The notes: a model not told the origin generated them from the sequence alone. A stretch of 64,000 nt of DNA from Candidatus Cloacimonadales bacterium (GCA_963678315.1 OY782781.1:2624001-2688000); one strand, 5' to 3'. Counted from the stretch's first letter, positions 6,498-24,334 are shown. Numbers and translations: made by a program.

Positions 6498-9400
6498 TTA
6501 AATTCTTATCCCTACAACCGTTATATCATCTCTTTGAGAATGTTGACTATGGCAATCAGAGATTGTCTTAGATAACCCATCTTTAGCAGTAGCAAGACTA
6601 ATATTTCTATGTTGATTGATAAAGTCTATGAGTCCTTTTTGTTTAAATCTTTTTCTAGCACCGTCTTCAATTACAGCCATATCATAGATTCCATCTGTTG
6701 AAAGATATAATTCAATTTGATTATCATAACTCAATTGGAAGGCTTCGAAAGGTATATCTTTTGTATCACCTATACTTCTTTTTGTACCTTTAATAACTTG
6801 TAATTTTTCATTATCTTTCCTGAGAAACATATTGCATCTAGCTCCAATAAACTCAATCTCTTTGATAGTCTTATCGATTAGAACAATGCCAATATCAAGT
6901 CCAGCTTTTAAACCTGTATCTTTATCTCTAACTAAATTCCGGATACGATTATCAATTTCTTCAAGGCATTCATTAATTGAACTAAATTTACTATCCTTGA
7001 GAACATTATTCATAATAGAATTAGCAGCAATTGTCAAAAGTGCTCCAGGAACGCCGTGTCCTGTACAATCAACAACTGCACAGATAGCCCTATCCTTGTC
7101 TATTTGATAGAACCAGATAAAGTCACCACTTACTCTATCTTTTGGAAGATAGATAGAGAAGTATTCTTTTACGAAATTGCACACCTCTTTATCAGAAGGC
7201 AAGATAGATCTCTGCAGGGTCGCTGCATAGGTTATTGAGCTATTAATAAGATTGTTACTTTTCATAACTTCCAGCTTTTCTTCTTCTAATTCCTGGGTTC
7301 GGATAAGGACTAGTTCTTCTAACTTCTCCTTTGATTTGTTTAAATATCTAACCCTATATTTAATTATGAAAATAATTAGCATAGTGACTAAAAGTAGAAC
7401 GATTAATGTGTAAATAATTATCTTAATTATGTTTGGTATAACAACAAAAGGAATTGATTTTTGTTCAATAATATTACCTGAGGGGGATAAAATTCTTAAC
7501 TTTAATGTATATCTACCTAGAGGGAGGATACCATAGTCCTTAAAATTGTTTTTACTAAAGGTAGACCAATCGTCATCATATCCTTCTAGCCAGAAGCTAT
7601 ATTCAACACTTCTAAGATTGTTTAGGGAGTTGTATGAAGCGAATACCTTCACCTTATTCTTATCTGAATACTCAAAAATAACACTTCGATAATCATTGAA
7701 TATACTTTTGTACAAACGCGTATTTAGATTAGAATATAATATTCTTGTTTGTACATTTGATTCAACAATAATACTATAATCTCCATCTGTTGGTTCTTTG
7801 AACTTGTAAACACCTCCATCCGTTACTAAAATGAATGTGTTATTTTTAAGTATTGTACATCTACAAATTTGATCAGGTAAATAGTCATTGGTATCATAAG
7901 TTGTAAACCTATCCAACTCTTCAATATATTTTAGCAAATTATGTTGTTGCACAATCCATAATTTATCATTTTTATCAACTAGTACATCCCAAATATAATC
8001 AATTTTATCTCTTTCAGAACTAGCTATTTCAATAGCTTTATCGTTCTTCAGTTGCCATACCTTGGATAGATTTCTGCAATAACAATAAACAGATTGACCA
8101 GCATGCAGCAGTTTAACTTCTTGTTTTTTTAGCAAAGGCAGGCCAATATTGATTACTTTTGAAAAATCATTATTCATACAGCCTTCTAAAGGCACTTTAC
8201 AAATACTTGTTCCACTACTATCAGGATATGTTACATACAAAGTATCGTTAAAACAATAAATGTTCGCATAGTTATTATCAGGTAGATAGATAAAGTCTTT
8301 GTAGCTTAGCGAAAAGTACTTAATATTTCCATTAGTAAGTTCAAAAGGTATTAAATCACCTTTAGGAACCCTCACAGAACTTATCGTATCGGATTTATTT
8401 ATGAGTTCTTTGACATATAATGTTCCGTTTTCAAGAAGATATACTGTTGTTGCAGAATGATAAAGAAATGTCGACTCATCTAATTTTATCTTACCAGTAA
8501 TTGTTTCAGGTATTTTTAAAGCCACCTGCATAGAATCAACTTGCTTTTCTATTTGTTTAAAATTATCTTTATGAAGACAATTGAACTCATTGATATAATG
8601 TAAATATTTATATTTCATTTCTTTGTTATTAAAATTGATTGGATATAATTTATAGTCTAAAGTATCGATACTGAGTAAACTTAATGAATCTTCAGAAACA
8701 AAATCTGCATGAACTCCATCTACAACCCTATAAAATCCTCGAATTTCATATTCAAACCTTGATTCTCTAGATGATATCATAGCTTTTAAATCTAGTACCC
8801 TAGTCCCTTCTGAGCTAAAAATGAAACATAAATCTTTATTAACATAAACTTCATGAGGGCTATCATTAAATGGATAGTCAATAATTATAAATGAAGAATC
8901 TGACTTAACAATTATTTGACTATTTTTCCTGCTTGTTAATGTTAATGAGTACTCATCTTTTTTATAATAAGACAGTTGTGTAAACCTGTAAGAACTTGCT
9001 AGCTTTTTTTTACTATTAATATCAATTGTTTTATACATAATCTCATTATCATAGTTAGGACCAGGGAAAGTATAAAATGTCTCAATTAAACCATTTTTTA
9101 GTATTTTTAGACTACGAGATATTTTTGAAATAAATATTAACTCATTATCATATTCATATAGTTTATTATTACTAGCAAAATTACGTATACCCCAAAGATA
9201 GTCTTTCCCTTCAAATTGGTTTCTAATTTTATTTATAGCAGCATCCCAATTATTGCTTATGGTAAAATACACATCCTTAGCTGTAACATCTACATCAATA
9301 ATAGTTCTATCTCCTAGTTTTTTAGCCAGATTCCTGTCTATTTTAAAGTTATCTATGTTGTACAAGCTTGTTGCAGGTTTTTTACTCTCACCAAAAATAT

Positions 9401-10331
9401 CAAAAATTACAAGACTTTCATTATTAACTTTTACAACTCTTTGTAAACAGTCATCTGCTTTAATAATAACTTTCTTTTCAATTTCTCCTTTAGATATTTT
9501 CCAAAATACAGTACTTTCCTTCGTCTCATAATACACAACAAAAGAATTGCCTTTACTTTCACATACCTTGATATCATTCGTAGATAATAACCCAAAGTCG
9601 ATTGGATATTCTGCAACCCCATTCTCTCCCCAATATAGATATTTATCTTGCAGTAAGATTAGCATGTTCCCATTACTATTGATTGTGTGTTTAATTATAT
9701 CTTTGCTGTTGGGAATTACAAACCTTGATTCACTTACTGGTAATCCATTATGGTCAATTTCACTATTTTGGTAGAAATCTTCATTATTTTCAATCCTATA
9801 TATATAAGATTCATTTTCTAAATAAATAACTTTGTTGCAATCAGAGTGTATTCTCCTTGATTGTTGTATGTTGTAGCTGCTTATTGATCTATCATTTACT
9901 AATCGTACACTTTGTCCAAAAACTTTTATATAATTATCATTTTCAAAGAAGATAATATCCCTCAATGTATCAATAACAGTCAGATCTTTTTTAATCTCTT
10001 CTTCAAAAATTTGTAGAGGATATTCTTTATAAATATGAGATTGATCAAAGAATTCATAGCCATTGAAAAAATAAAACTTATCAGGATCAGCCCCTTCTCC
10101 TTTCTTTCTAAAAATAGCAAAGTTATCTTTAGTCACTCCCACTAGTTCATCTAGAATAGGATTACCATTTTTGTGAAGAAAAGAAGTGGTGTAAAGAAAT
10201 GGTTTATCTTCTTTTGTTATATGTATAGCATTTTCATATATATCACTATATTCCGAATTTACCTCGTTAAGAGCACATTCCAGGCTAGTAAACATAAGTA
10301 TAATCAAGCAAATTAAGATTATGTGTTTCAT
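6498..10331 (-). CDS. Membrane sensor PP2C/SpoIIE phosphatase (SiaA-like): signal peptide, large extracytoplasmic region, Y_Y_Y-like domain, TM, phosphatase
   Basis: 'YSFWLEGYDDDWS' Y_Y_Y-like; TM 'IIIYTLIVLLLV'; 'VSGDF', 'DCTGHGVPGA', 'STDG', 'QRDDIT'. Confidence 0.88.
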   Translation of the reverse strand: MKHIILICLIILMFTSLECALNEVNSEYSDIYENAIHITKEDKPFLYTTSFLHKNGNPILDELVGVTKDNFAIFRKKGEGADPDKFYFFNGYEFFDQSHIYKEYPLQIFEEEIKKDLTVIDTLRDIIFFENDNYIKVFGQSVRLVNDRSISSYNIQQSRRIHSDCNKVIYLENESYIYRIENNEDFYQNSEIDHNGLPVSESRFVIPNSKDIIKHTINSNGNMLILLQDKYLYWGENGVAEYPIDFGLLSTNDIKVCESKGNSFVVYYETKESTVFWKISKGEIEKKVIIKADDCLQRVVKVNNESLVIFDIFGESKKPATSLYNIDNFKIDRNLAKKLGDRTIIDVDVTAKDVYFTISNNWDAAINKIRNQFEGKDYLWGIRNFASNNKLYEYDNELIFISKISRSLKILKNGLIETFYTFPGPNYDNEIMYKTIDINSKKKLASSYRFTQLSYYKKDEYSLTLTSRKNSQIIVKSDSSFIIIDYPFNDSPHEVYVNKDLCFIFSSEGTRVLDLKAMISSRESRFEYEIRGFYRVVDGVHADFVSEDSLSLLSIDTLDYKLYPINFNNKEMKYKYLHYINEFNCLHKDNFKQIEKQVDSMQVALKIPETITGKIKLDESTFLYHSATTVYLLENGTLYVKELINKSDTISSVRVPKGDLIPFELTNGNIKYFSLSYKDFIYLPDNNYANIYCFNDTLYVTYPDSSGTSICKVPLEGCMNNDFSKVINIGLPLLKKQEVKLLHAGQSVYCYCRNLSKVWQLKNDKAIEIASSERDKIDYIWDVLVDKNDKLWIVQQHNLLKYIEELDRFTTYDTNDYLPDQICRCTILKNNTFILVTDGGVYKFKEPTDGDYSIIVESNVQTRILYSNLNTRLYKSIFNDYRSVIFEYSDKNKVKVFASYNSLNNLRSVEYSFWLEGYDDDWSTFSKNNFKDYGILPLGRYTLKLRILSPSGNIIEQKSIPFVVIPNIIKIIIYTLIVLLLVTMLIIFIIKYRVRYLNKSKEKLEELVLIRTQELEEEKLEVMKSNNLINSSITYAATLQRSILPSDKEVCNFVKEYFSIYLPKDRVSGDFIWFYQIDKDRAICAVVDCTGHGVPGALLTIAANSIMNNVLKDSKFSSINECLEEIDNRIRNLVRDKDTGLKAGLDIGIVLIDKTIKEIEFIGARCNMFLRKDNEKLQVIKGTKRSIGDTKDIPFEAFQLSYDNQIELYLSTDGIYDMAVIEDGARKRFKQKGLIDFINQHRNISLATAKDGLSKTISDCHSQHSQRDDITVVGIRI
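6502..7243. repeat. About 740-bp near-identical duplication of the phosphatase domain (partner 10332-11073)
   Basis: Ungapped match at offset 3830, about 23 mismatches by manual count. Confidence 0.92.
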
Positions 10332-13300
10332 ATTCTTATCCCTACAACCGTTATATCATCTCTTTGAGAGTGTTGACTATGGCAATCAGAGATTGTCTTA
10401 GATAACACATCTTTAGCAGTAGCAAGACTAATATTTCTATGTTGATTGATAAAGTCTATGAGTCCTTTTTGTTTAAATCTTTTTCTAGCACCATCTTCAA
10501 TTACAGCCATATCATAGATTCCATCTGTTGAAAGATATAATTCAATTTGATTATCATAACTCAATTGGAAGGCTTCGAAAGGTATATCTTTTGTATCACC
10601 TATACTTCTTTTTGTACCTTTGACAACTTGTAATTCTTCATTATCTTTCCTGACAAACATATTGCACCTAGCTCCTATAAACTCAATCTCTTTGATAGTC
10701 TTATCTATTAGAACAATGCCAAGATCAAGTCCAGCTTTTAAACCTGTATCTTTATCCCTAACTAAATTCCGGATACGATTATCAATTTCTTCAAGACATT
10801 CATTAATTGAACTAAATTTACTATCCTTGAGAACATTATTCATAATAGAATTAGCAGCAATTGTCAAAAGTGCTCCAGGTACCCCGTGTCCTGTACAATC
10901 AACAACTGCACAGATAGCCCTATCCTTGTCTATTTGATAGAACCAGATAAAATCTCCACTTACTCTATCTTTTGGAAGATAGATAGAGAAGTATTCTTTT
11001 ACAAAATTGCACACCTCTTTATCGGAAGGCAAAATCGATTTCTGAAGGGTCGCTGCATAGGTTATTGAGCTATGCAAAGATTTTTGTTTATTAACAATTT
11101 CTAAAGTTTGTTGATCAACTAGACTAGCCAGTCTCTTCTTATCTCTATTTATTTTTTTAACTCTTCTTACAAAAAAAGCTCTAACAATTAATACTATCGC
11201 AGTAAGCAATAAGATTACATATATAACAATAATTACAATTTGTGGACCTAATCTACTAACTCTGAAAGGATAGATATCAGTCTCAATAATCTCACCATTA
11301 TCTAATTTAATTCTAGCTTGGACACTATAACGCCCTGGTTTTAAGATACCAAATTCCCTTTCAGCATTATTATTAAATTTAGGCCAGTCTGTATCATATC
11401 CCTGTAAAAAGATGGAATACTTAATATTTTTATCTGAGTAAAAACTATTACTTTTTATCCTAATTATTGTTTTCTTGTTGGAGACATATACATATCGATC
11501 AATAGTGTTCTCATTTGAAGCCTCCAAGTCCTTAAAAACATTTCCATCTTGAACAAAAGAGAAATTAAGAAATTTGTAATCTTGTTCAGGCTCATCGAAT
11601 AAAAAAAGTCCATTATTAGATGCTATGGCAATTTGCTTGTTATATGAATGAATGGAGGTAATATTGGTTGGAACTCCATAATAGGAATCATATTGTAAAA
11701 ACTCTTTACTTTGGGAGTTATATTTCAAAAGACTATTACTAGTTGAAAACCATAAGTTCCCCTCTGAATCTTTACAAGAACTTAATACTTCACCTTTGAT
11801 TTTAAAGCTTTTAATTTCATCATTCTTAAATCTATAAATGAAATTTTGATTACCATAGATAAAAACATTTTCCCCATCACTAGCAAATGATGGATCAAAG
11901 GATTTTTGCGAGAGTCTGTAGCTTTTAACCTTATCCTTAATCTTATCTAGATATGCTAGACTATCAACAGAAACAACATTTAACCTAAATTCATTGTTAA
12001 ATGTAGTATAGAATACTAAATCATCAAAACTTTCTATATAATTACCACAAAATCCTGATAGCCAAGGCTTAAAACAATATTTATTTTCAATTACATCATA
12101 TATATTTGTAGGTAAATCTGTTTTTTGTACACTAATTACAAAAATTTGTCTATAGTTTAACTTGGAAATAGCAAGTGCCAGTAAATGATTGCTATCTTTA
12201 AAATCTGTAACTAATGAATCTGTATCAGTGTTAATTAAGTAGGTCTGCCTTTTCTCATCAAATTTTAACTCAAAGTTTCCCTTTTCTTCTAGCTCAAATA
12301 CATATTTTGACAACTTTAATAAATTTTCTTTTGCTATCTGTTTAGGATAAATAGAATCTATAGAAAAAGATAATGTATCGACTAATAAAAAAGATTCTTC
12401 ACTTATCTCAATAAATCTTTTGCTTGTTTTGGGGAAAGTTACGTTTATCGAGTCAATGAAATTTTTAAAACTTTCATGTTCTCTAAGGTTTAGCTTTTCA
12501 CAAGGATGAAAAGCGATATAACTGTTATTATCTATAGAAAATAATCCCTTGTCATTTGATAAAATACTCTCAATAACTTTATCATCAAGCATTCTTATTG
12601 TGTTGTTGGAATTCTTTATTTTATAAAATGCTCTGTTAGTAAAACAGAGACTAATCTTACCAAAAGTCTGCATTAATTTGATTTCTTCCTGATGAGGAAA
12701 AATGATTAATTTACTTTCATCAAGATATTTAGTTCCAATATAAGATGTATTCTCCAGCTCTGAAACAAAAGAAAATTCATCAAAGCTTTTATAAGCAAGT
12801 TGTTTAATGACTCCAAGATTCGTGATAAGATAATTGTTCTGAGCAATAAGTAATTCATATGAGCTGTTAATATTACTTCCAATCGAAAGTGATCCTATCT
12901 TCCTTGTTATGTGACTATTAATAACAGCTGTTGTAATTAGTTCTTTTGTTGAGTCTATTTTTGGAAAAGATTTATAAGGAACTTCTTTTATTGCTTTAAG
13001 TTGTCCCTGACAATACTGAAAAATAGTTGGACCAGATGATTCTTTTTCTTTTGCTAAAATGAAGAGACTATTTTCAGCTGTGCAAAAATCATAAATTTGG
13101 TTTACTCCTAAACTTGATAATAGATCATCTTTATTTTTTATCTGCAAGTTATCTTTATCTAATAGCCAATATTTACAATAATAGTTTTCATCGTCAGTTT
13201 CGTAAAGCGTTTTAATCAAAACAATAGTATTATACTCTGGTAAGATGAAGTATTTATCAAAAGAACCATTTGCGCTGTTTTTTTGTGTTATTTTTCCAGA

Positions 13301-14110
13301 TTCTACATTTAATATTTCTAATGAGTCACTTTCACTTCTGTGGGAATAAGTAATTTTATCTTCACTAAAATCAAGTAATTGCAAGTATTTTCCTACTGGA
13401 TGAGTAAGAGAGTATTTTCTGATTTCTTCATCCCAGACAAAATAAGCATCATCTGAGACAGCACAAGCCACACCTAAGCTATCTACTTCAAACTTAATAT
13501 CATTTGGAAAATGTACCTTTTCAACACAGTCATTCAAATTCCGATTAGTAAACTTACTAAAGTCTATTCTACATATATAGTCTTTTTCTCTAAAATACAA
13601 TCGATTATTAATCGTTTTAGAAATTGGAATGGGATGTTCAGCCTTATGAAATCCATATCTTTCATCCGCTTTAATTTCAAATCTATCGTTATAAAACTGC
13701 AGGTAAGAGCTTTCATCGATTTTTGCCACATACTTGAGTGTATCTTGATATTCATAATCAATCTTAGACAAAGTTAACCCTTTAACACTATAATCGCTAA
13801 TTTGAAATGTTACATCTTGAACATGAATACCATCGAATTTATAGTATCTAGCAAAGTTTTCATCATCAGCATCAGGATTCTTTTTAAGCCAAATGTAGCC
13901 TTCATAGTCTTGAAATAGAGCTTTATCAACTTCTGGGAATCCATCTTTTTGAGAATACTTAGTGATATACTGATAAGAATCTTCAACTCTAGATATAAGA
14001 CTACATTCATCCTTAAAAGACTTGAAATTCTCTGTATTAGCAGATAAGACAACAACTGCAAGAAGAGGACAAATTACCAATAACCACCTTATTTTCATAC
14101 CAAACCTCAT
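10328..14110 (-). CDS. Second membrane sensor PP2C/SpoIIE phosphatase (SiaA-like); true start probably ATG at 14098
   Basis: Same architecture and catalytic motifs as 6498..10331; ATGA overlap with it; GAGG precedes second ATG. Confidence 0.88.
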   Translation of the reverse strand: MRFGMKIRWLLVICPLLAVVVLSANTENFKSFKDECSLISRVEDSYQYITKYSQKDGFPEVDKALFQDYEGYIWLKKNPDADDENFARYYKFDGIHVQDVTFQISDYSVKGLTLSKIDYEYQDTLKYVAKIDESSYLQFYNDRFEIKADERYGFHKAEHPIPISKTINNRLYFREKDYICRIDFSKFTNRNLNDCVEKVHFPNDIKFEVDSLGVACAVSDDAYFVWDEEIRKYSLTHPVGKYLQLLDFSEDKITYSHRSESDSLEILNVESGKITQKNSANGSFDKYFILPEYNTIVLIKTLYETDDENYYCKYWLLDKDNLQIKNKDDLLSSLGVNQIYDFCTAENSLFILAKEKESSGPTIFQYCQGQLKAIKEVPYKSFPKIDSTKELITTAVINSHITRKIGSLSIGSNINSSYELLIAQNNYLITNLGVIKQLAYKSFDEFSFVSELENTSYIGTKYLDESKLIIFPHQEEIKLMQTFGKISLCFTNRAFYKIKNSNNTIRMLDDKVIESILSNDKGLFSIDNNSYIAFHPCEKLNLREHESFKNFIDSINVTFPKTSKRFIEISEESFLLVDTLSFSIDSIYPKQIAKENLLKLSKYVFELEEKGNFELKFDEKRQTYLINTDTDSLVTDFKDSNHLLALAISKLNYRQIFVISVQKTDLPTNIYDVIENKYCFKPWLSGFCGNYIESFDDLVFYTTFNNEFRLNVVSVDSLAYLDKIKDKVKSYRLSQKSFDPSFASDGENVFIYGNQNFIYRFKNDEIKSFKIKGEVLSSCKDSEGNLWFSTSNSLLKYNSQSKEFLQYDSYYGVPTNITSIHSYNKQIAIASNNGLFLFDEPEQDYKFLNFSFVQDGNVFKDLEASNENTIDRYVYVSNKKTIIRIKSNSFYSDKNIKYSIFLQGYDTDWPKFNNNAEREFGILKPGRYSVQARIKLDNGEIIETDIYPFRVSRLGPQIVIIVIYVILLLTAIVLIVRAFFVRRVKKINRDKKRLASLVDQQTLEIVNKQKSLHSSITYAATLQKSILPSDKEVCNFVKEYFSIYLPKDRVSGDFIWFYQIDKDRAICAVVDCTGHGVPGALLTIAANSIMNNVLKDSKFSSINECLEEIDNRIRNLVRDKDTGLKAGLDLGIVLIDKTIKEIEFIGARCNMFVRKDNEELQVVKGTKRSIGDTKDIPFEAFQLSYDNQIELYLSTDGIYDMAVIEDGARKRFKQKGLIDFINQHRNISLATAKDVLSKTISDCHSQHSQRDDITVVGIRI
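10332..11073. repeat. Second copy of duplicated phosphatase-domain DNA
   Basis: Matches 6502-7243. Confidence 0.92.
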
Positions 14111-14123
14111 TTAATATTAAAGA

Positions 14124-15074
14124 CTAGTAAACTTTTTCTAACAACCTTAAAATATTTTCTTTTGTAGCTTTAGATTTATCAATGATCAGCTTATCTCCCT
14201 CAATTCTATAAGCATTTTCAATGTCTTCTTTTTCAGATTTGAAGGTAATCAACTGGTGAGTTATCTTAGGATGGTTAAATCCTTTCAATATTTTTTCATC
14301 TGGAGGATTGCAGTTGATATATTCTTGAGCTATTCCCCATGTAGTATGGCAAATCTGTATTTCATCAACTTCGGCACTCTGTTCAAGTCTGGAAGCTAGA
14401 TTAACGGTTTTACCACTTATTGTATAATCCATCCTTTCAGATGAACCAAAGTTACCCACCATACACCAGCCAGTAGCAATTCCGATTCTTATATGAAATG
14501 GTTGTTCATAGCCCATCAGAAACCACTTTTTACGAATTGTCTTCATCTTCTCTCTCATCTCATAAGACATTTGAAGGCAATTCTTAACATTATCTTCTAT
14601 ACTTGAATTACCTGGAGCTCCAAAAAAAACCATGATAGCATCACCAATATACTTATCTAATGTACCACCATATTTATTAACAATAATGGTCATCTCCTCT
14701 AAGTAGCTATTGAGGAATTCGGAGAGCGTTTCTCCGTCCATCTCTGAGGTAATTGTACTAAAACTCTTTATATCAGAAAAGAAAACTGTTATATTTTTCC
14801 TTACTGTTTGATAGTTTTCTGCAAGCTCTCTTCCTTTGACGATATTTTTATAGAGTTGTTGTGATACATATTTCTTTAGTCTGTGTTCAATTCTTCTGAG
14901 TTTAGCAGACTGCTTATCATTGTGTTTAGTTAGCATTTTAATCTGTTTAAGTAATTTGGAATACTCAAGCATTAATTGACCGAACTTTTCTTTACAAACT
15001 TTATCACTAATTTTATCTACATCTATATCTGACAGATCAGCTATGAATTTTGATTCTTTCTCAAACATACTCAT
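14124..15074 (-). CDS. Class III adenylate cyclase with N-terminal coiled-coil stalk
   Basis: 'FFSDIKSFS', 'DKYIGDA', 'DYTISGKTVNLASRLE'; Lys/Thr at substrate-specifying positions favours ATP. Confidence 0.9.
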   Translation of the reverse strand: MSMFEKESKFIADLSDIDVDKISDKVCKEKFGQLMLEYSKLLKQIKMLTKHNDKQSAKLRRIEHRLKKYVSQQLYKNIVKGRELAENYQTVRKNITVFFSDIKSFSTITSEMDGETLSEFLNSYLEEMTIIVNKYGGTLDKYIGDAIMVFFGAPGNSSIEDNVKNCLQMSYEMREKMKTIRKKWFLMGYEQPFHIRIGIATGWCMVGNFGSSERMDYTISGKTVNLASRLEQSAEVDEIQICHTTWGIAQEYINCNPPDEKILKGFNHPKITHQLITFKSEKEDIENAYRIEGDKLIIDKSKATKENILRLLEKVY

Positions 15075-15077
15075 AAT

Positions 15078-15449
15078 CTAATAGCCAATATAATCAATAT
15101 TTAAATGAGTTTCATCAGTCAAATCTTCACCAGTCTCTTTAAGATCTTCATCATCTTCAGGATATCTCCATTTAATTTTAATTGATTTTCCAGAATCAGC
15201 CATCTCTTGAAAATACTGTATTAAATCGTAGATTGACTTATAAGAACTACTATTAAGATATTCAATATCGAATACAATTTCAGCAGAATCTTTCATTGTG
15301 AAGTATTCAGTTACCCAATTGACAACAGGTTCAAAAAACTCAAGTGTATTTTCAGGATAAGACTCACCTTCAAAAGATAAAACTTCCTTATTATAATCTA
15401 GATCTATTTTTAAGGTTTGTTCTGTTGCTTCTATATTTAAATTGTTCAT
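15078..15449 (-). CDS. SiaC-family (DUF1987) regulatory phosphoprotein
   Basis: 'GESYPEN..EFF.PV..W', 'YLNSSS.K', 'W.Y..DDED..E.GED'. Confidence 0.9.
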   Translation of the reverse strand: MNNLNIEATEQTLKIDLDYNKEVLSFEGESYPENTLEFFEPVVNWVTEYFTMKDSAEIVFDIEYLNSSSYKSIYDLIQYFQEMADSGKSIKIKWRYPEDDEDLKETGEDLTDETHLNIDYIGY

Positions 15450-15991
15450 ATATTCTCCTTATTCATTGTTACTTGGATTTTTAGAAAGTAATAATCCTCA
15501 TTAACTTGCTTGAAATCATAATCAATCTTAGATTTAGATTTTAAGGCAACTTCAACAAGCCCAAACCCAGCACCTTCTCTCTTTCTCTCTTTTTTTAATG
15601 CTTGCTTTTTCATTAGAGTTAGTTCATCTGTAGATTTGCTATTTATCATATCCAAATAAGTAGAGATTGCATCAATTTTATTTTTATGAACTGCATTTCC
15701 TGATTGTACAACGAAACAATTGTTTTCTTCATAAACATGCATAATACCTTCACTTACTATATGTGAGTCATGTTCTGTTCTGTTGGCTGAATAATGTACT
15801 ATATTTTGGGCCATTTCAACAAAAACAGAAAATATCCTTCTACTTAATTTTTTTTCTTTGCCAAATAACTTTGATTTAAGGGATTTAGCTAAATCATTAT
15901 AAATATCTTCTGCAAAATTACCACAAAATATAACTATTGTCTTCTTATTTTCCCGAGTAAACATATTGTAAATATCGAATAAATCTGACAT
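15446..15991 (-). CDS. SiaB-family GHKL-type Ser/Thr kinase
   Basis: 'FVEMAQNIVHYS' and 'GAGFGL' motifs; ATGA overlap with siaC-like gene. Confidence 0.88.
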   Translation of the reverse strand: MSDLFDIYNMFTRENKKTIVIFCGNFAEDIYNDLAKSLKSKLFGKEKKLSRRIFSVFVEMAQNIVHYSANRTEHDSHIVSEGIMHVYEENNCFVVQSGNAVHKNKIDAISTYLDMINSKSTDELTLMKKQALKKERKREGAGFGLVEVALKSKSKIDYDFKQVNEDYYFLKIQVTMNKENI

Positions 15992-16035: not shown

Positions 16036-16063
16036 ATTATTAGTTTAGATTATTTTTTGTCAA
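16036..16063 (-). promoter_or_regulatory. Putative sigma70 promoter upstream of siaB-like gene
   Basis: TTGACA-16 nt-AATAAT on minus strand. Confidence 0.5.
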
Positions 16064-16121: not shown

Positions 16122-19100
16122 TTATTGAACTTTACTTTTCATTCTATCTAGCTGTTGCTGAGTTATAGTTGTAAAGTTTTTATCTTTTGCTTTCAAAAAC
16201 AGTTGATTAGCTAGTGACAGCTTTTCAATACCAGCTTGAATATTCTTAGTAATTTCAAGTGTTATTCCCCAATTAAATAGAGCCTTGCCTTCTCCAATTA
16301 CATCTCCTATCTGGTTAAGAGATGATTGTTGCCTTGAATAGTATTCTACTGCTTTCTCAAAATCCTTTTTCTCTCTATATACATTTGCTAGATTTCCGAT
16401 AGTATGTGCAATTCCCTCAATATCATTCAACTCTTCCTGGATTTTTAAATTCTGCTCATATATATATTTGGCTTTATCAATTTTACCTTGCATAAAAAAA
16501 GCATCTCCCAAGCCATCATTGCAAAAAGTTACTCCAACTCTATCGCCAATCTCTTCAGCTATAAGCTTTGCTTTATTCAAAAAATCACAGGATTGGTTAG
16601 GTTCATTTATTACATTCTTAATATAACCCATATTGTATAAAACTGTATGTTCTTGTTGTCTATCACCAATATATCTAGCGATTTTTAAACATACTTCTAA
16701 ATTTTCTTGGGCTTTTTGATCTTGCCCTTCTGCAAATTGAATCATCGCTAGTTCAGTGAGCACTTTTGAATAACCATTTTTATCACCAATCTCTTCTGCG
16801 ATTTTATAAGCCTTACTGTAATAATCAATCGCTAATTGAGGATTACCTGTCCTTATAGATATTGTCCCTAAAGATGTGTAAGCAATTCTAATGTATAGCT
16901 TTTTATTCTCAGCTATAGCTAAATCAAGAAGCTTAGAATAGTAGTATTTAGCATTTTCATAATTTGCTTTATCGAGATAAAATTGTCCTTGAACTGAATT
17001 TAAAAGAATCTTATTTACTATAGATAAACTTTTTTCTTCTGAATTTAGCATATCACGAGTTTTGATGAATTCGTCATCTAGTGAGCAAGCCCTATAAAAG
17101 TCTAAGGCAGTTAAACGTATACGGTTTAAAATTTCTAAAGATTTTATCTTTTTTAAAGCCTTTGCATAAACTGAAGAAAATCTCTTAAAATCCTTTTTCA
17201 ATTCATAGAAGCGTAAAATATTTTGAAGATATCTATCCTGCTGAAAATCTCTTAATTTATCGAAACGTAATACTTTAAGAATTTCTTTAATTTCACTAAC
17301 ATCCCCTCTGATAAGTAATAACTCTAAATATTCCAACCTTAAACTGTTTTTGATACTTTTATCAAGAGTATTATCTATAGCAATTTTGTAGTAATAACTT
17401 GAGTCAACAAATGCAGAAATTGAATAATTCTTTTCAGCCGCTAATTTACACCAAAATGCAATTTCAGCTTTTATATCAGCTAAAATATAGTGATTAGCAA
17501 TTATTTCATAATATTCATATTGGTTATCTGAGAAATTATTGATATAAAACTCAGCAATCTTAACATGCATAGATTTTTTTTCTTTATGCAGTATAGTTCG
17601 ATAAATTGCCTCCCGCATAGTTTTATTATTGAATAAATACTCAACTTCTGGTAACATTTTCTTTTCAAGTATGTATTTATCTGCTGATAACTTAATCAAA
17701 ACATCTTCAATATGGATATTTATCTGTTTATCCGTTAATTTTTTAATCATACTATTAGAAAAACTTACTCCAATAATCGATGCATATTTAAGAATACTTT
17801 TTGATTCTTGCGACAGTTTTTCAAACTGATTAAGCAGTAAATTTTCATAGCTCTTAGGAATAATATTTTTTTGGATTAATTGGTTCAAATCAGCAAGATT
17901 AAAAATAGCTCTATTGTTATCCCAATTAGATTTTATTATCCTTAATGTATCAACGGTGTATGCTGGATTCCTATCTGTTAGATCAAGTAAATTACTTATT
18001 GCTTGATTCGATATTTTAATCTCAAGACTTTTAGCTAAGCTTCTAGTTATATTCTCTGTGAACTTCTTTGTTCTAAATAAGGCTGGATTACATTTATCTA
18101 AATCTTTTACATCTGACTTATCTCTACTTGTTAAGATAATCTTTATTCCAAGATTTGAAAGTTTTGATACAACTACACTACAAAGGAGTTTAGAAAACTG
18201 ATCTAGCCATTGATAATTATCAATAACAAATACTTTGTAGTCTTTGAGCAGAAACAAGAACATTTCTGAAAATATGTCAATAATAAGCCCTAAGTTGATT
18301 TTATCATCCCTTTTTAACAGATAATCCTCAATTAACTGATAACTAACATGCAAATCATTTTGATCAATGAAATCCTTAATAATTAATCTGTCGTTTATTA
18401 TATTAGTAATATTCAGTTTAATATTGAACAGCTGGTAAACTAAGTTCAAGGGTCTAAGACCATCATGTTCAGAGAGAGAGAATAAAAATACATCATTAGA
18501 AACATAGTTATGCTTAAGATAAGTGTGCGTTAATAATGATTTCCCTGATCCTGATTCCCCATATACAATGTTAATCATGGGTTTGAACAGAGAAGTAATA
18601 TCATCATAACCTAAAAGTTCTACATTTGCATACCTTTTGTTAAAGATATCCCATGTATCAGATATTTCTTTCGTTATATGAAATATCGAGATATCCTCAG
18701 CAATACCTTTGACTTTAACTCTTTTCAATAGTTCTGTTTCAAATCGACCAACCAGATGTTCTAAAATTTCTTTCGAGAAAGTAACCTTGCCATATTCAGA
18801 CTCATTCATAAGTCTTGCTGCGATATTTACAGCATTACCAATTATGCCATATTCAAAGCGATTCTTTGCTCCTAGTATTCCAGCAAATACCTTATTATAT
18901 GTTAATCCTATTTTAGATTTTATAAACATACTAGGAAGTTCAACAATACGTTTTGAACACACGAAAGCTCTTTGAATATCATCTTGATGAGTATTAGGTA
19001 ATCCAAATGAGATTAAAACTACGTATCCTTTATCACTATAGTCAATTTTATTGATTAATCCATCATAATAATATACAATATCTTGCACTTGCTTGTAATA

Positions 19101-19850
19101 AGAATTAAAAGATTCAATTGGAATATCTTCTTTGTCGCCTATATCCTTTAATGACAAGAAAATAGTTACAGAATCTCGCAGTTCTCCCGTAGCAGAATTT
19201 AAAGTAAGCCAATCAGTAACTTTTGGATGGATAAATTTATCGCTACAAGAAGATAAATCATCATTCTTTGCTTTATTAACATCCTTTAAAATGTAATCAT
19301 CTGAAGTCTCGATTTCATAAAGGTCAGATATAGAAAAAGTTCTATCCAGAACCTCTCCTGTGAAATAGTAATCCAAATGATATTTTTGTGAGCCAACAAT
19401 ATGCACATTTAGTTTGCCCCACCCACTACTATGATGGAAATCTATCTCAACAGAATACTTTTCATAAATAGTCTTGTTCAATAAGATTAAGCTTGACTTC
19501 ATTGATTTAAGACATGATTCAATAATTGGAATAACATCCTCTTCCGACCCAGGAAATATAGCCTGCAATGAGTCTCCACCATATTTTACTAAATCACCAT
19601 TATAATGATCAATTATATTGTACATTAAATCAAAGTAACTATTTAAAATATCTATTATAATTTCTACTGAGTAATAACCATTTTTACTAGTAGTTTCAGT
19701 CAGTTTTGTGAAAGACTTCACATCAGTAAATATAACACCTGCATTAATTTCCTTAGTAATTGGTATGTCTATTTTATTCTTACAATCTCTGACTAAATTT
19801 GTTATTATCTTAGGTATTAATCCTCTTAGCTGTTGGATATCATCCTCCAT
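16122..19850 (-). CDS. Tandem-domain adenylate/guanylate cyclase with P-loop (STAND/AAA-like) ATPase and TPRs (soluble-AC-like architecture)
   Basis: CHD1 'FTDVKSFT..KYGGDS'; CHD2 'NKIDYSDKG..GNAVNIAARLM'; 'GESGSGKS'; 'DNYQWLD'; C-terminal TPR repeats. Confidence 0.87.
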   Translation of the reverse strand: MEDDIQQLRGLIPKIITNLVRDCKNKIDIPITKEINAGVIFTDVKSFTKLTETTSKNGYYSVEIIIDILNSYFDLMYNIIDHYNGDLVKYGGDSLQAIFPGSEEDVIPIIESCLKSMKSSLILLNKTIYEKYSVEIDFHHSSGWGKLNVHIVGSQKYHLDYYFTGEVLDRTFSISDLYEIETSDDYILKDVNKAKNDDLSSCSDKFIHPKVTDWLTLNSATGELRDSVTIFLSLKDIGDKEDIPIESFNSYYKQVQDIVYYYDGLINKIDYSDKGYVVLISFGLPNTHQDDIQRAFVCSKRIVELPSMFIKSKIGLTYNKVFAGILGAKNRFEYGIIGNAVNIAARLMNESEYGKVTFSKEILEHLVGRFETELLKRVKVKGIAEDISIFHITKEISDTWDIFNKRYANVELLGYDDITSLFKPMINIVYGESGSGKSLLTHTYLKHNYVSNDVFLFSLSEHDGLRPLNLVYQLFNIKLNITNIINDRLIIKDFIDQNDLHVSYQLIEDYLLKRDDKINLGLIIDIFSEMFLFLLKDYKVFVIDNYQWLDQFSKLLCSVVVSKLSNLGIKIILTSRDKSDVKDLDKCNPALFRTKKFTENITRSLAKSLEIKISNQAISNLLDLTDRNPAYTVDTLRIIKSNWDNNRAIFNLADLNQLIQKNIIPKSYENLLLNQFEKLSQESKSILKYASIIGVSFSNSMIKKLTDKQINIHIEDVLIKLSADKYILEKKMLPEVEYLFNNKTMREAIYRTILHKEKKSMHVKIAEFYINNFSDNQYEYYEIIANHYILADIKAEIAFWCKLAAEKNYSISAFVDSSYYYKIAIDNTLDKSIKNSLRLEYLELLLIRGDVSEIKEILKVLRFDKLRDFQQDRYLQNILRFYELKKDFKRFSSVYAKALKKIKSLEILNRIRLTALDFYRACSLDDEFIKTRDMLNSEEKSLSIVNKILLNSVQGQFYLDKANYENAKYYYSKLLDLAIAENKKLYIRIAYTSLGTISIRTGNPQLAIDYYSKAYKIAEEIGDKNGYSKVLTELAMIQFAEGQDQKAQENLEVCLKIARYIGDRQQEHTVLYNMGYIKNVINEPNQSCDFLNKAKLIAEEIGDRVGVTFCNDGLGDAFFMQGKIDKAKYIYEQNLKIQEELNDIEGIAHTIGNLANVYREKKDFEKAVEYYSRQQSSLNQIGDVIGEGKALFNWGITLEITKNIQAGIEKLSLANQLFLKAKDKNFTTITQQQLDRMKSKVQ

Positions 19851-19858
19851 TATCTTTA

Positions 19859-20263
19859 CTAAATTGTATTTTTTATCCTATTAACAAGGATTTTATTTAC
19901 TCCTAAAAAAAACTTGTTAGCGATAATACTGTTTTTTACTAATAAATTGCATAATTCAGAGTAATCAATTTTAACTATTTCACAATCCTCAATAGCTTTT
20001 ACAAAGGCTGATCTATGAATTGGAATCGTAAAATTCAATTCCCCTATAAGTGTTCCACTGTTTAATTCTGCAACTTTTATTAGCTTATTTTCATCACATA
20101 TTTCTACAATAGCTTTACCAGATTTAATAAGAAGCAAATTTCTATCTCTTTCGCCACTGCTTATTATATATTCGTCCTTATTGTAATTACTTATTGAAGA
20201 TATATTTAGAATTTGTTTAACCTCTGTATGATCAAAATTAAATACTTTTGGTAACATTAACAT
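19859..20263 (-). CDS. Stand-alone cyclic-nucleotide-binding domain protein
   Basis: 'LIKSGKAIV', 'IGELNF..PIHRSAFVKA' phosphate-binding cassette. Confidence 0.85.
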   Translation of the reverse strand: MLMLPKVFNFDHTEVKQILNISSISNYNKDEYIISSGERDRNLLLIKSGKAIVEICDENKLIKVAELNSGTLIGELNFTIPIHRSAFVKAIEDCEIVKIDYSELCNLLVKNSIIANKFFLGVNKILVNRIKNTI

Positions 20264-20676
20264 CCTCTTTTTTTGATTTCATTTATTCTAATTAATTTTT
20301 CAACCAAGGAATCATTCAGAGCAGCATTGATTTTACTATTCATTGAATTTGATTCTTCAAGTATTGATAAATTTAAGGAGATTCTTTCTAAATCAACACT
20401 TGTCTCAGAAAAGTATGATAAGAATGTTTCATTTTCAAAAACAGACTCTTCACCAAAAATTTCTCCTTCAGATAAAGTCATTACTTCTTTTTTATCTTCT
20501 TCAAGACTAATTGTTACAAGCCCTTTTTTGATGATATAAACTGAGTCTTTTAATATTTCAATCCTACAATTAGAATTTACTTCAATTCTTTCAATATTGA
20601 AATTTAAGTCTTCAATTTCTTCTTTACTTAAGTATTTAAATAAATCTACACTATTCTTGCGTACATAAATATTCAT
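20257..20676 (-). CDS. Stand-alone cyclic-nucleotide-binding-like protein (degenerate)
   Basis: 'YIIKKGLV', 'EGEIFGEES'; lacks the conserved Arg. Confidence 0.7.
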   Translation of the reverse strand: MNIYVRKNSVDLFKYLSKEEIEDLNFNIERIEVNSNCRIEILKDSVYIIKKGLVTISLEEDKKEVMTLSEGEIFGEESVFENETFLSYFSETSVDLERISLNLSILEESNSMNSKINAALNDSLVEKLIRINEIKKRGC

Positions 20677-23600
20677 TAAAAATTCCTAATCTTCTTCAAT
20701 GTTATTAAGTTAAAAATAAGACAGAATACTATGATTACAGATTCTGCAAACTTCCTAGTAGAGTATTTATTATTGAAAACAATATAGTTTTTCGAAATGA
20801 AATGATTTTTTGAATCTTTCATAGACTTTACATGAGCAAAATCTACTAACATAGAATTGCTTTTATTAATATAATTATCATGAGGGTATAGTGACAAGAT
20901 TGCATTTTTCTGATCAGTCAGGTTACTTATTAAATCCAAATCACTTTGACCCTTTAGTTTATTATCAAGATCTTTTAGAACTCGAGATCGTTGATTATTG
21001 TTTACCGAATTTAAGGTGATATTTTCGAACAACCACTTAGTGGGTATTACTTCACAGAATTCAGGAACTTCTCTTTTAGAATTAATCTTTAAATTTTTAT
21101 TCATTGAACTAAATGGAATAATTGCTCCGCCAAAGATTATCATCGGAATTAAAGTCAAAGGTAGTACCATAAGTAAGCTCTTTCTCTCTTTTATTGTTGC
21201 TGAAGAAAATAAGCCAATACTAATACCACACAATCCTGAAAGATTCAATGTAGTAAAATATACCCAAAAATGACCCTTTATTTCCAGTATATAGGTTGTT
21301 ATAAATACATACAATAATGTTTGGATAATATTAAAAATCTCCAAAGTTGTTAGTTTTGCTACAAGATAGCTTAATGCAGATAGACCTACTTTTTTTTCTC
21401 TAACAATAATAAGCTTTTCCGGAAGTATTTCATATATAGATCCTGACAAGCCCAAAAAGATAAATATCAAGATTGATATAAAATTGAAATGAGGGATATT
21501 TCCATTATCCCAAAATGAGTAATTAGTCCCTGAACTATTCTTTAGCAGAACTGATGTGAATAGCCCTAATAGAAAAGGAACCACTGACAACATAATTATG
21601 TTTTGTATACTGGATAAACTATTATGTAGATCTCTAAAGAAGCAATACCAAAATTGAATTAACTTATCAACTAAGCTATGATTTTTATTTTTCTTTTCTT
21701 TAGAGAAAACATAAGAATCTTTGTTTTTATCCCCCTTAAATTGTTCCATCAAGACTTTAGATTCTCTCTTCTTTTTCCAATAGTTCCGAGGAAAAAGCCT
21801 TTCTGTATGCTTATCTTTTGAGCTATTTACAGTTTTATATTCTACAATATCAAAGAAATAATCTGGATTTTTTCTCTCTTTTTTTATTGTTAATTCTTTT
21901 TTATTTATAATTATTTGCTTTAATTCTTCATCAAAATAGTCAAATGCTTTTGATACATCACCAAAATAGACTACAACCCCTTGTTTATCTAAGAAAAGAA
22001 GTTTATCAAATTTACTAAACAATAATGAACTTGGTTGATGGATTGTAGTTAATATAATCTTTCCTGTAAACTTTAAATCACTTAGAATTGATAATAATTG
22101 TTCGGAATCTTTGGAAGATAAACCAGATGTTGGTTCATCAAGAATAAATATTGCAGGATCGAATAAAAGTTCAAGGGCAATATTTAATCTTTTTCTTTCC
22201 CCCCCACTTAGAACTTTCTTTTCTTCGTTACCAACAACTAGATTCTTTTTTTCTAGAAGACCCACCTTATTCAGTATAGAATCGATTTTATCAGCTAATA
22301 AAGGACCTTTCATTCTGCCAACAGACCTTATTTTTGCATAAAAAAACATATTTTGAAAGACTGTTAGATTATTAAATAGTAGATCACTTTGAGGAACATA
22401 TCCAATATTTTTAATTATATCTTTATATTTATCAATAAAGTCCATATCATCGACTTGGATATTCACTTCATCTGCAGATAATTCACCATTAAGTACTTTA
22501 AGTAAGGTAGTTTTTCCACTTCCACTTGGCCCCATTATTGCTGCTATTTCACCTTTATTCAATTTAAAAGAAACATCAGTTAAACCTAATATTTTATTAT
22601 TAAAATAATGTTTCACTTGCTTCACATTCAATGTTTCATACACTATCTCATGTTTTACTAGTTCTCCGCTTTTCAAAATTTTGTAGGATACATTCTTCCA
22701 AGTTAAGATATCTATACTGGAATTAATTTCTATCTGACCATTAACTTGTTTGTTGTTTACTAATATATTACTGTTATTTACGATTAAATTATATTTATCT
22801 CTATTTATTTCGAGTATAGCGATACTATTTTCATGTAAGACTTGTGAAGTTATTAATCCATTCATATACTCAACAATATGTAATTCATACTTTAAATTGC
22901 TTGATTGATCAGATTTATATAAATCAATTACAGGATTTTTATTTTTAGCCCCAATATAACCATCTAAATAAAGTTTTCGGATTCTCTTTATCTTATTCCT
23001 ACTTCTTCTTTTGTTAGGTAAGCATAATGTAAAATGGTTTTCCTCTTGAAATATTAGTTCATTTTCACTGTAACTAGATATAAGCTGAGAAGTATCAAGA
23101 ACTTTATTTTGAAACATTTTTGTTAAAAGACTCTTTGTCAAAATGATGTTATTAAGTTCAGGGAAAGCCCTATCTTCAACAAACTTTGCTATGATAATTT
23201 GAGTATTGTTGACCTTTGTAAGAGAAACAATATAATCTTCATATAATTTATGAAAGATTATTTTACAACTTTTAGAGCTTATATCGACATCTCCATTTTC
23301 ATTCGAAAACAAGAGACTACTATTGAAACTAATGTCAAAAACATCATCCCAGAAACCATTATGGTCTAAGATAAAACTTGCTTTCTTACCACAAAAGAAA
23401 TCAATTAAGTCATCAAATAAATTAACATTAATTCTAAGTAAATCTAACACTTTTATCATCTCAATAGAACCAATATTGTAGGTATGAATTTTATATCTAA
23501 CCACAAATTGAAACACTTTAAGCATCAATAGTATCTTATCTGCATTGTTTAAATGGTCGTTTAAAAAGTTTGCTGAATAGCGTGTAGGATATGGTTCTCT

Positions 23601-23777
23601 AGCAAGTTCAGAAATCACTTTAGGGTCGATTGAATTAATCTTTAAATCAACAATTATAGAACTTAAAAACTCAATCTTGTCTATATTATCATCGACATTA
23701 TTACCACTTAAAAAAAAGAGTGATATAATTGATTTTAGAATAGCTTTATCTATCTCCATTGAACCTTTCCAAAACAT
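20676..23777 (-). CDS. ABCG-like fused ABC exporter (long N-terminal extension + NBD + ABC2 membrane domain)
   Basis: 'GPSGSGKTT', 'LSGGERKR', 'LDEPTSGL', 'TIHQPS'; C-terminal TM bundle. Confidence 0.88.
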   Translation of the reverse strand: MFWKGSMEIDKAILKSIISLFFLSGNNVDDNIDKIEFLSSIIVDLKINSIDPKVISELAREPYPTRYSANFLNDHLNNADKILLMLKVFQFVVRYKIHTYNIGSIEMIKVLDLLRINVNLFDDLIDFFCGKKASFILDHNGFWDDVFDISFNSSLLFSNENGDVDISSKSCKIIFHKLYEDYIVSLTKVNNTQIIIAKFVEDRAFPELNNIILTKSLLTKMFQNKVLDTSQLISSYSENELIFQEENHFTLCLPNKRRSRNKIKRIRKLYLDGYIGAKNKNPVIDLYKSDQSSNLKYELHIVEYMNGLITSQVLHENSIAILEINRDKYNLIVNNSNILVNNKQVNGQIEINSSIDILTWKNVSYKILKSGELVKHEIVYETLNVKQVKHYFNNKILGLTDVSFKLNKGEIAAIMGPSGSGKTTLLKVLNGELSADEVNIQVDDMDFIDKYKDIIKNIGYVPQSDLLFNNLTVFQNMFFYAKIRSVGRMKGPLLADKIDSILNKVGLLEKKNLVVGNEEKKVLSGGERKRLNIALELLFDPAIFILDEPTSGLSSKDSEQLLSILSDLKFTGKIILTTIHQPSSLLFSKFDKLLFLDKQGVVVYFGDVSKAFDYFDEELKQIIINKKELTIKKERKNPDYFFDIVEYKTVNSSKDKHTERLFPRNYWKKKRESKVLMEQFKGDKNKDSYVFSKEKKNKNHSLVDKLIQFWYCFFRDLHNSLSSIQNIIMLSVVPFLLGLFTSVLLKNSSGTNYSFWDNGNIPHFNFISILIFIFLGLSGSIYEILPEKLIIVREKKVGLSALSYLVAKLTTLEIFNIIQTLLYVFITTYILEIKGHFWVYFTTLNLSGLCGISIGLFSSATIKERKSLLMVLPLTLIPMIIFGGAIIPFSSMNKNLKINSKREVPEFCEVIPTKWLFENITLNSVNNNQRSRVLKDLDNKLKGQSDLDLISNLTDQKNAILSLYPHDNYINKSNSMLVDFAHVKSMKDSKNHFISKNYIVFNNKYSTRKFAESVIIVFCLIFNLITLKKIRNF

Positions 23778-24302: not shown

Positions 24303-24334
24303 AAAAAGAGAGTGAAATAAACTTCACTCTCTTT
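24303..24334 (-). terminator. Rho-independent terminator of giant gene
   Basis: aaagagagtgaa/ttcactctcttt stem followed by T-run on minus strand, about 20 nt past stop. Confidence 0.8.

Follow-up and report, generated by a model that had tools for sequence, protein, structure and literature searches.

The SiaABCD system of Pseudomonas aeruginosa comprises the PP2C phosphatase SiaA, the kinase SiaB, the phosphoprotein SiaC, and the diguanylate cyclase SiaD (PDB 6kko, 6k4f, and 7e6g; PMC8457831, PMC7647112). Each SiaD dimer takes up four SiaC molecules, which sit at two repeated motifs along its parallel stalk helices; Thr68 of SiaC inserts between the helices against S82/Q86 (and S50/Q54), the SiaC contacts on SiaD comprise S50/Q54 and S82/D83/Q86, and phosphorylation of Thr68 or mutation of N67/T68/S69 abolishes binding (PMC8457831). 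The same authors describe DUF1987, the family of SiaC, as widespread and possibly able to modulate adjacent proteins; adenylate cyclases are not named in the sections of that report that were available (PMC8457831). Diguanylate cyclases are also the targets of STAS-type switches, namely HptB-HsbR-HsbA/HsbD in P. aeruginosa and BgrSTUWV/BgrR in Sinorhizobium (as cited in PMC8457831). Here we describe a locus in a 64,000-nucleotide stretch of the genome of a Candidatus Cloacimonadales bacterium (GCA_963678315.1, OY782781.1:2624001-2688000; the whole stretch is called the window below), in which a siaB-like gene, a siaC-like gene, and two siaA-like genes accompany the gene for a class III adenylate cyclase.

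An earlier note on this DNA had proposed that the locus is the Sia switch with cyclic AMP (cAMP) as its output, and the parts of that proposal that can be tested on sequence (synteny, docking motif, co-folding, and an adenylate-specific catalytic set) came out in its favor. Our reading, to which we assign a probability of about three in four, is of a SiaABC-type partner switch made up of all five genes, with a homodimeric class III adenylate cyclase in place of the diguanylate cyclase SiaD as its output. Strong support from comparative genomics, from motif homology, and from a co-fold run with controls marks it as a real, conserved, and apparently undescribed variant of the SiaABC switch. No description of a SiaC-regulated adenylate cyclase was found in the full-text literature, in which subscription journals are thinly covered, and the literature searched yielded no STAS-type switch that has a cAMP-producing class III cyclase for a partner; the available parts of PMC7647112 and PMC9239204 make no mention of a wiring between SiaC and an adenylate cyclase.

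The locus shares with SiaABCD a SiaB-family kinase, a SiaC-fold protein with a Y-L-N-[TS]-S-S acceptor loop, and a SiaA-like PP2C catalytic domain, and its output enzyme resembles SiaD in being, as predicted, a dimer with an N-terminal stalk helix that bears an [RK]-x-[SGN]-D docking motif. It differs in having a class III adenylate cyclase (cAMP) as its output and not a GGDEF enzyme (cyclic di-GMP, c-di-GMP), in gene order (siaB-siaC-cyclase-siaA-siaA versus siaA-B-C-D), in its two phosphatases with large extracytoplasmic Reg_prop/Y_Y_Y sensors, and in an acceptor residue that is Ser, not Thr as in P. aeruginosa SiaC. Because its output lacks GGDEF, the locus is a variant and not a member of SiaABCD in the strict sense. 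With the STAS-type switches it would have in common that the phosphorylation state of a small STAS-like protein sets binding to a nucleotide cyclase; those switches, unlike the one in the window, use canonical STAS proteins and GGDEF outputs. Measured against the class IIIb enzymes CyaB (3r5g) and Spirulina CyaC (1wc0), the window cyclase has metal-binding, substrate-binding, and transition-state residues identical to those of CyaB; unlike either enzyme, it has a 90-residue helical stalk with a docking motif and a conserved tail of ~35 residues.

The five genes are packed almost without spacing on the minus strand, from position 15991 down to 6498, in the order siaB-siaC-cyclase-siaA1-siaA2 (Table 1), in keeping with the tight coupling of siaB-like, siaC-like, cyclase, and two PP2C genes that had been claimed for them. 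siaB and siaC overlap by 4 nucleotides, as do siaA1 and siaA2, and the gaps on either side of the cyclase gene measure 3 nucleotides (from siaC) and 13 nucleotides (to siaA1). The host genome, a single contig of 2.99 Mb with ~30% G+C, holds one SiaC gene and about seven genes with cyclase homology domains. Since promoter-like sites in this AT-rich region were not enriched over shuffles (124 found versus 114 expected) and a terminator scan likewise showed no enrichment, the operon boundaries are drawn from gene spacing alone.

The siaB-like product passes the model for SiaB-family kinases (NF038262; 129.5 bits, cut-off 85) and stays under the cut-off of the SiaB equivalog (NF038264; 69.7 bits, cut-off 225). 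The siaC-like product scores 115.2 bits against PF09345 (cut-off 24.5), matches the P. aeruginosa SiaC chains 6kko and 6k4f at 2.4e-16, and reaches 84.3 bits with the SiaC equivalog (NF038265; cut-off 150). For both phosphatases the top NCBIfam match is SiaA (NF038263), over the PP2C part only and with scores (168.8 and 182.9 bits) far under the cut-off of 700. With the SiaA, SiaB, and SiaC equivalog models all under cut-off, the window proteins are therefore family members, not orthologs; and because the SiaA equivalog model covers the PP2C part only, the sensor parts differ from that of SiaA. The acceptor motif YLNSSS aligns with YLNTSS of P. aeruginosa SiaC (6kko), as expected from the proposed exchange of Ser for Thr. 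Among 32 aligned SiaC proteins linked to cyclases, S68 and S69 never vary, and the acceptor position is always T or S.

The gene after siaC had been said to lack GGDEF and to retain an intact class III catalytic set, and both statements hold. PF00211 is the sole Pfam match of its product (100.5 bits, cut-off 21.9) and PF00990 was not found; the two Asp are present, together with the Lys/Thr and Asn/Arg pairs, as in CyaB. D101, K141, D145, T218, N225, and R229, plus R196, are invariant in a family alignment of 36 sequences, and the first six coincide with the residues that P. aeruginosa CyaB (3r5g) has at the aligned positions; the cyclase matches 3r5g at 5.8e-55, and CyaB is a proven adenylate cyclase. 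We take D101 and D145 to be metal-binding, K141 and T218 to contact the substrate, and N225 and R229 to act on the transition state. The AlphaFold2 (AF2) model of the cyclase has a predicted local distance difference test score (pLDDT) of 81.8; Foldseek aligns it with 3r5g at a root-mean-square deviation of 1.5 Å over 189 columns, and its top structural matches are adenylate cyclases.

From the N-terminus, the protein is built of a stalk, the catalytic domain, and ~35 conserved residues that form a C-terminal tail. Residues 21-70, which take in the stalk helix (25-69), have 10-residue block means of pLDDT between 76 and 89, and a short separate helix (72-79) lies between the stalk helix and the catalytic domain in the AF2 model. 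Pfam detects no sensor domain in the N-terminus. The tail (residues about 282-316; 14124-14230) is common to all family members and is modeled as a beta-hairpin plus helix, with low confidence at 282-292; it lies outside the predicted SiaC interface, and a domain search with it gave chance-level matches only.

The cyclase is a member of a family of its own with a wide distribution. A protein search returned thousands of relatives of the cyclase, the top ones ~320 residues long and aligned over the full query length, so that the 90 residues ahead of the catalytic domain and the ~35-residue tail behind it are covered too. By name, these top relatives come from Desulfonema, other Desulfobacterales, Cloacimonas, Acidobacteriota, and unclassified metagenome-assembled genomes (MAGs), the nearest named ones among the matches listed being Cloacimonas/Cloacimonetes MAGs; proteins with N-terminal PF05230 or PAS domains appear as more distant matches only. 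In the 36-sequence alignment the conserved positions of the N-terminus are L34, Y38, L41, L42, Q44, T49, D53, R65, L66, Y69, V70, and S71. Seven close Desulfobacterales relatives of about 490 residues (P0005, P0011, P0012, P0014, P0020, P0022, and P0046) carry an extra C-terminal GGDEF domain, with the conserved tail between the cyclase and GGDEF domains; the GGDEF motif reads GGDEI in P0014 and looks degenerate in P0005 and P0012.

Synteny is the strongest evidence for the proposed wiring of SiaC to the cyclase. The survey of siaBC-cyclase synteny suggested in the earlier note places siaC next to the family cyclase in 36/36 relatives inspected, across phyla, versus 0/79 other cyclase loci. 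When 201 genomes of the phylum were searched with the family profile, a full-length family cyclase was present in 24, the window genome included; in the 23 others siaC lies directly upstream in 23/23 and siaB in 22/23, the exception for siaB being at a contig end, and neither gene was present at six other cyclase loci inspected in the phylum (0/6). A wider scan with the family alignment took one genome per species and gave a best 80 loci, mostly of CyaB-like multi-domain cyclases. Thirteen of the 80 listed loci encode a short family cyclase (about 325-375 residues), and SiaB and SiaC adjoin it in 13/13, most with a sensor PP2C as well. The 13 loci belong to Alphaproteobacteria (11), Porticoccaceae (1), and Cloacimonas (1), and L002 is labeled Candidatus Cloacimonadota in the tree. 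SiaB and SiaC are encoded directly upstream on the same strand in 12 of the 13; at the Porticoccaceae locus they adjoin the cyclase gene on the opposite strand. Pfam backs SiaC in 8 and DUF6272 in 9 of these loci; in five the siaC open reading frame was displaced by an antisense frame in filtering, so that SiaC rests there on tblastn and, in three, also on alignment. The remaining 67 of the 80 listed loci had neither SiaB nor SiaC (0/67) and served as the negative set: of six scanned with Pfam, five encode long cyclases with HAMP, GAF, 7TMR-DISM, or Tll0287 sensors, and the upstream genes at negative locus L054 are a thiolase and a dehydrogenase. Where siaC and the cyclase gene share a strand, the gap between them is -1 to 18 nucleotides in 33/34 pairs.

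A helical segment of the cyclase (residues 37-59) had been compared in the earlier note to a SiaD-type stalk, and that segment does contain a motif alignable with the one that SiaC binds on SiaD. In a profile comparison of the two N-termini by hhalign (P 5e-5, score 29.9, 34 columns), the cyclase motif pairs with the second, catalytic-domain-proximal SiaC-binding motif of SiaD, and all 31 controls scored lower (12.8 for the reversed SiaD alignment, 16.2 for the best of 30 column shuffles). The stalks of five SiaD orthologs bear two motifs of the type A-R-[VI]-S-D-x-Y-Q; the cyclase family consensus around Asp53 is L-T-R-x-S-D-x-x-Q, and the window version reads L-T-K-H-N-D-K-Q-S. Within the 36-sequence alignment D53 is invariant and T49 nearly so. 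A first, stricter pattern matched 21/36 linked cyclases, missing 15, and was then broadened to a 6-residue form, which matches 36/36 SiaC-linked cyclases by construction; that count is uninformative because the pattern was fitted to those 36, and the informative counts are the one in cyclases without SiaC, where the region ahead of the catalytic domain has the 6-residue pattern in 0/73 (21,238 residues scanned), and the one in the whole genome. There, a strict 12-residue form has 2 matches in 2352 open reading frames of at least 100 residues. One, at residue 48 of the cyclase, is the single docking-type motif that the genome-wide scan placed at an N-terminus; the other, at residue 420 in the middle of a TPR protein, was taken as chance.

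Co-folding of SiaC with the cyclase, proposed as a check in the earlier note, placed the acceptor loop on the helix singled out there. A 2:2 model of cyclase and SiaC, built with a separate alignment for each chain, scored 0.75 (runs of 0.74, 0.75, and 0.76), and none of the three controls exceeded 0.00; 116/157 solved complexes and 2/215 mismatched pairs reach the pass mark. The three runs share at least 94% of contacts, with a partner pLDDT of at least 90. The predicted interface takes in cyclase residues 2-6, 40-60, 64, and 80, and SiaC residues 10-11, 31-36, 64-68, 70-75, and 99-113, which correspond to the acceptor loop, alpha2, and alpha3. In the model, the stalk is a parallel dimer and the catalytic domains are paired. 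Ser67 contacts residues 48, 51, and 52 in one cyclase chain and residue 53 in the second, and so is placed between the two stalk helices, as Thr68 is in the SiaC-SiaD complex; the SiaC surface predicted to be used (acceptor loop, alpha2, alpha3) is likewise the same.

Several points weigh against a SiaC-driven adenylate cyclase. The window motif is divergent, with Asn at position 52, which is Ser in most members, and Ser at position 56, which is Gln or Glu in most, and one docking motif is apparent in the stalk of the window cyclase, versus two in SiaD. SiaD did not come up when residues 1-92 of the cyclase were searched with phmmer against PDB sequences; the matches were coiled-coil noise (E of at least 0.3), and the likeness of the motifs emerged only when profiles were compared. 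No SiaC-domain protein longer than SiaC was found at E<=1e-5, and there was no SiaC-cyclase fusion, which is weak evidence. The co-fold score is a measure of model confidence, obtained with own alignments and a 2+2 stoichiometry that depart from the calibration set, and could partly be the model's memory of the solved SiaC-SiaD complex 7E6G. SiaC binding, phosphorylation, and cAMP synthesis are, moreover, all steps that we infer.

On the preferred reading, of a partner switch with cAMP output, the two membrane phosphatases would read extracytoplasmic signals through unrelated beta-propeller/Y_Y_Y domains and, if they act as SiaA does, dephosphorylate phosphorylated SiaC, so that SiaC would stay free of phosphate while those signals last. 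The SiaB-family kinase would, by its homology, phosphorylate SiaC on Ser67, the position equivalent to Thr68 of P. aeruginosa. Unphosphorylated SiaC is predicted to dock through its acceptor loop and alpha2/alpha3 on the stalk of the cyclase dimer, where two helices run in parallel, at residues ~40-60 around Asp53, a placement backed by motif homology and synteny. Docking most likely stabilizes the stalk dimer and turns cAMP synthesis on, as SiaC does with SiaD, and a phosphate on Ser67, beside Asp53, would expel SiaC. Class III cyclases need a dimer for active-site formation, and it is this, together with the analogy with SiaD, that makes an activating sign the most likely.

The alternative that survives best keeps the wiring and reverses the sign: unphosphorylated SiaC would clamp the stalk in an inactive state, and phosphorylation by SiaB would free the cyclase. 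N-terminal coiled coils of class III cyclases can transmit activation or inhibition, and the docking site ends ~30 residues before the catalytic domain, with helix 72-79 between them in the AF2 model. We hold this to be improbable, although not remote, given that class III cyclases need a dimer and that the co-fold puts SiaC on a parallel dimeric stalk with paired catalytic domains; in the only case studied, moreover, SiaC binding promotes the active SiaD dimer (PMC8457831). It is very unlikely that the cyclase is merely co-transcribed, with SiaC acting on another protein such as the ABC exporter or a histidine kinase: other SiaC paralogs in the phylum do precede histidine-kinase-like genes, but the genome has a single SiaC and its sole N-terminal docking-type motif sits on the adjacent cyclase, and the 36/36 synteny with gaps of a few bases, the co-fold score of 0.75 versus 0.00, and the motif count of 0/73 in unlinked cyclases all speak for the neighboring enzyme as the target. 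That the protein makes cyclic GMP or another nucleotide, or is a catalytically dead scaffold, can hardly be credited, since for all that the fusion of some close relatives to GGDEF allows mixed outputs in the family, Lys141/Thr218, both Asp, Asn225, and Arg229 are the same as in CyaB and invariant in 36 relatives, and the top structural matches are adenylate cyclases.

Inputs to the putative switch vary more than its core. Phosphatase 1 is ordered as a signal peptide, an extracytoplasmic Reg_prop/Y_Y_Y part, one transmembrane segment (958-976), and a C-terminal PP2C domain; phosphatase 2 has a signal peptide, a Y_Y_Y outside part, one transmembrane segment (971-990), and a C-terminal PP2C domain. 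Their outside parts share about 20-26% protein identity, versus a near-identical 746-nucleotide tract at the PP2C-coding 3' ends (Table 1), the first 300 nucleotides of which are 98% identical. The tract indicates gene conversion or a recent domain swap, and the combination of near-identical PP2C tracts with diverged sensors fits two sensors that have to recognize one shared substrate. A genome of the same family as that of the window, G085, has five PP2C genes around the module, where other module genomes have one or two, and several inputs appear to converge on one SiaC. Its locus (L142; G085:C1:2344000-2363999) contains one siaB-siaC-cyclase core, three PP2C genes upstream, and two with Y_Y_Y downstream; the exporter gene there is upstream and divergent. 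In alphaproteobacterial loci the upstream phosphatases have PAS, SBP_bac_3, or MASE1 sensors. The input domain thus varies between loci while the SiaB-SiaC-cyclase core stays fixed.

Table 1. Features of the window discussed in the text; positions count from the first nucleotide of the window.
Feature	Position	Strand	Basis
siaB-family serine/threonine kinase, 181 residues	15446..15991	-	PF19788/DUF6272 at 1.3e-34
siaC-family phosphoprotein, 123 residues, putative acceptor Ser67 in Y64-L-N-S-S-S69	15078..15449	-	PF09345 (DUF1987) at 1.7e-33
Class III (CyaB-like) adenylate cyclase, 316 residues	14124..15074	-	PF00211 at 1.1e-28
Long stalk helix, cyclase residues 25-69	14868..15002	-	AF2 secondary structure
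Proposed SiaC-docking motif, cyclase residues 47-59, M-L-T-K-H-N-D53-K-Q-S-A-K-L	14898..14936	-	Alignment to SiaD motif; predicted interface 47-58
Cyclase catalytic domain, residues 91-278	14241..14804	-	Pfam match, residues 92-275
siaA-like sensor phosphatase 1, 1260 residues	10328..14110	-	SpoIIE 1.8e-17; Y_Y_Y; Reg_prop
siaA-like sensor phosphatase 2, 1277 residues	6498..10331	-	SpoIIE 7e-18; Y_Y_Y 3.9e-08
Near-identical PP2C-coding 3' tract, copy 1	10328..11073	-	25 mismatches/746 nucleotides versus 6498-7243
Near-identical PP2C-coding 3' tract, copy 2	6498..7243	-	25 mismatches/746 nucleotides versus 10328-11073
Promoter-like site, consensus match only	16036..16063	-	TTGACA-16-AATAAT, 11/12, in the 130-nucleotide gap 5' of siaB
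Cyclase-ATPase-TPR protein, 1242 residues, between the cyclic nucleotide-binding genes and siaB	16122..19850	-	PF00211, AAA_16, TPR
Stand-alone cyclic nucleotide-binding protein, 134 residues, candidate cAMP reader	19859..20263	-	PF00027 at 2.1e-11
Second stand-alone cyclic nucleotide-binding protein, 139 residues	20257..20676	-	PF00027 at 5.8e-07, 29.8 bits versus cut-off 27.5
ABC_tran + ABC2_membrane (ABCG-type) exporter, 1033 residues, candidate effector	20676..23777	-	Pfam domains

Upstream of the switch genes, 4-5 kb away and on the same strand, lie two genes for small proteins with a cyclic nucleotide monophosphate (cNMP)-binding domain, which account for two of the four PF00027 matches in the whole genome. 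cAMP would probably be read by these two proteins, perhaps to control the adjacent ABCG-type exporter; we hold this step at lower confidence, as its basis is recurrent gene neighborhood only. The 398-residue N-terminal domain of the exporter has no Pfam match even at E<=1. An exporter and cNMP-binding set occurs within 10 kb of the module in 11/24 phylum genomes, the window counted: in eight of these the set shares the strand of the cyclase, and in two of the eight it follows the cyclase directly; in one it is truncated by a contig end, in one it is divergent and at the region edge, and the last is the window itself. A homolog of the exporter N-terminal domain is found in 16/24 module genomes versus 15/177 genomes without the module. 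To be set against this link are the 13/24 module genomes whose 10-kb flanks do not contain the set, its presence in 15 genomes without the module, and the relatedness of the genomes, which are not independent, so that the exporter counts are descriptive. The 1242-residue cyclase-ATPase-TPR gene in between (16122-19850) could equally well supply the cNMP-binding proteins with cAMP; its product has two cyclase-homology stretches, an AAA/NTPase region, and TPR repeats, gave no strict docking motif in the genome-wide scan, and is not established as a member of the switch. In the Porticoccaceae MAG locus (L006:7955-8560) a cNMP-binding gene stands directly beside siaC-siaB, on the strand opposite the family cyclase. 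Elsewhere in the window, the minus strand carries one open reading frame of 8198 codons (24353-48949), followed by a strong hairpin at 24305-24334.

SiaC has other apparent outputs in the phylum. The 201 genomes hold 43 SiaC copies in 40 genomes, and 24 of the copies are cyclase-linked; of the 19 other loci, 17 were retrieved and 16 scanned with Pfam, L114 being omitted because it nearly duplicates L113. In these 16 loci siaC is followed by a gene for a PAS-HisKA protein (12 loci; 320-490 residues), a histidine kinase (2), a 153-residue protein without Pfam match (1), or an NlpC/P60 protein (1), and L112, L115-L118, and L120-L128 are PP2C-SiaB-SiaC modules followed by PAS-HisKA or histidine-kinase proteins. 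These histidine-kinase-like proteins mostly begin with a helix that bears a docking-type motif, for example K-I-T-N-I-G-D-S-T-Q or V-T-K-V-G-D-A-A-Q; among the proteins that follow siaC the pattern caught five such motifs and nine more were read by eye. Judged from sequence, the histidine-kinase-like proteins are a third output class of the SiaABC switch in the phylum. The 153-residue protein (L113:1867-2328; also in L114) has V-T-R-I-S-D at residue 57 and may be a minimal SiaC target. At L119 (positions 3-797; G022) the gene upstream of siaB and siaC encodes a PP2C-GGDEF fusion.

In a tree of 58 SiaC proteins the clades track output type, with 7 label changes where the minimum is 6 and the mean for shuffled labels is 30.2; relatives share labels, so the figure describes clustering and not independent events. 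Genome G089 has a kinase-linked and a cyclase-linked SiaC, which fall in separate clades. The closest counterparts of the window SiaC and cyclase come from a genome of another family (G087; 57% and 66% identity, respectively), versus about 37% and 47% for the window's own family, which suggests that the module either passes between lineages or represents an old paralog. A tentative extension, which we place somewhat short of even odds, is that the docking helix is a portable plug acquired in evolution by three or more kinds of dimeric signaling enzyme (GGDEF cyclases, class III adenylate cyclases, and histidine kinases), and that a complete and undescribed pathway runs here from several sensor phosphatases through one SiaC, the cyclase, and cAMP to a cNMP-binding pair that gates the exporter.

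To our knowledge the SiaABC switch has been studied only as a regulator of c-di-GMP and biofilm, and in one pathogen. The window locus and its 36 relatives would give it a concrete second output, cAMP, and the short docking motif would allow SiaC targets to be predicted from sequence alone. If this is true, many proteins annotated as "adenylate/guanylate cyclase domain-containing protein" in Cloacimonadota, Alphaproteobacteria, and (by source names) Desulfobacterales would become a defined regulatory class, and control by a partner protein through reversible Ser/Thr phosphorylation would be added to the known regulation of bacterial class III cyclases. The locus also offers a candidate route from an extracellular signal to an exporter.

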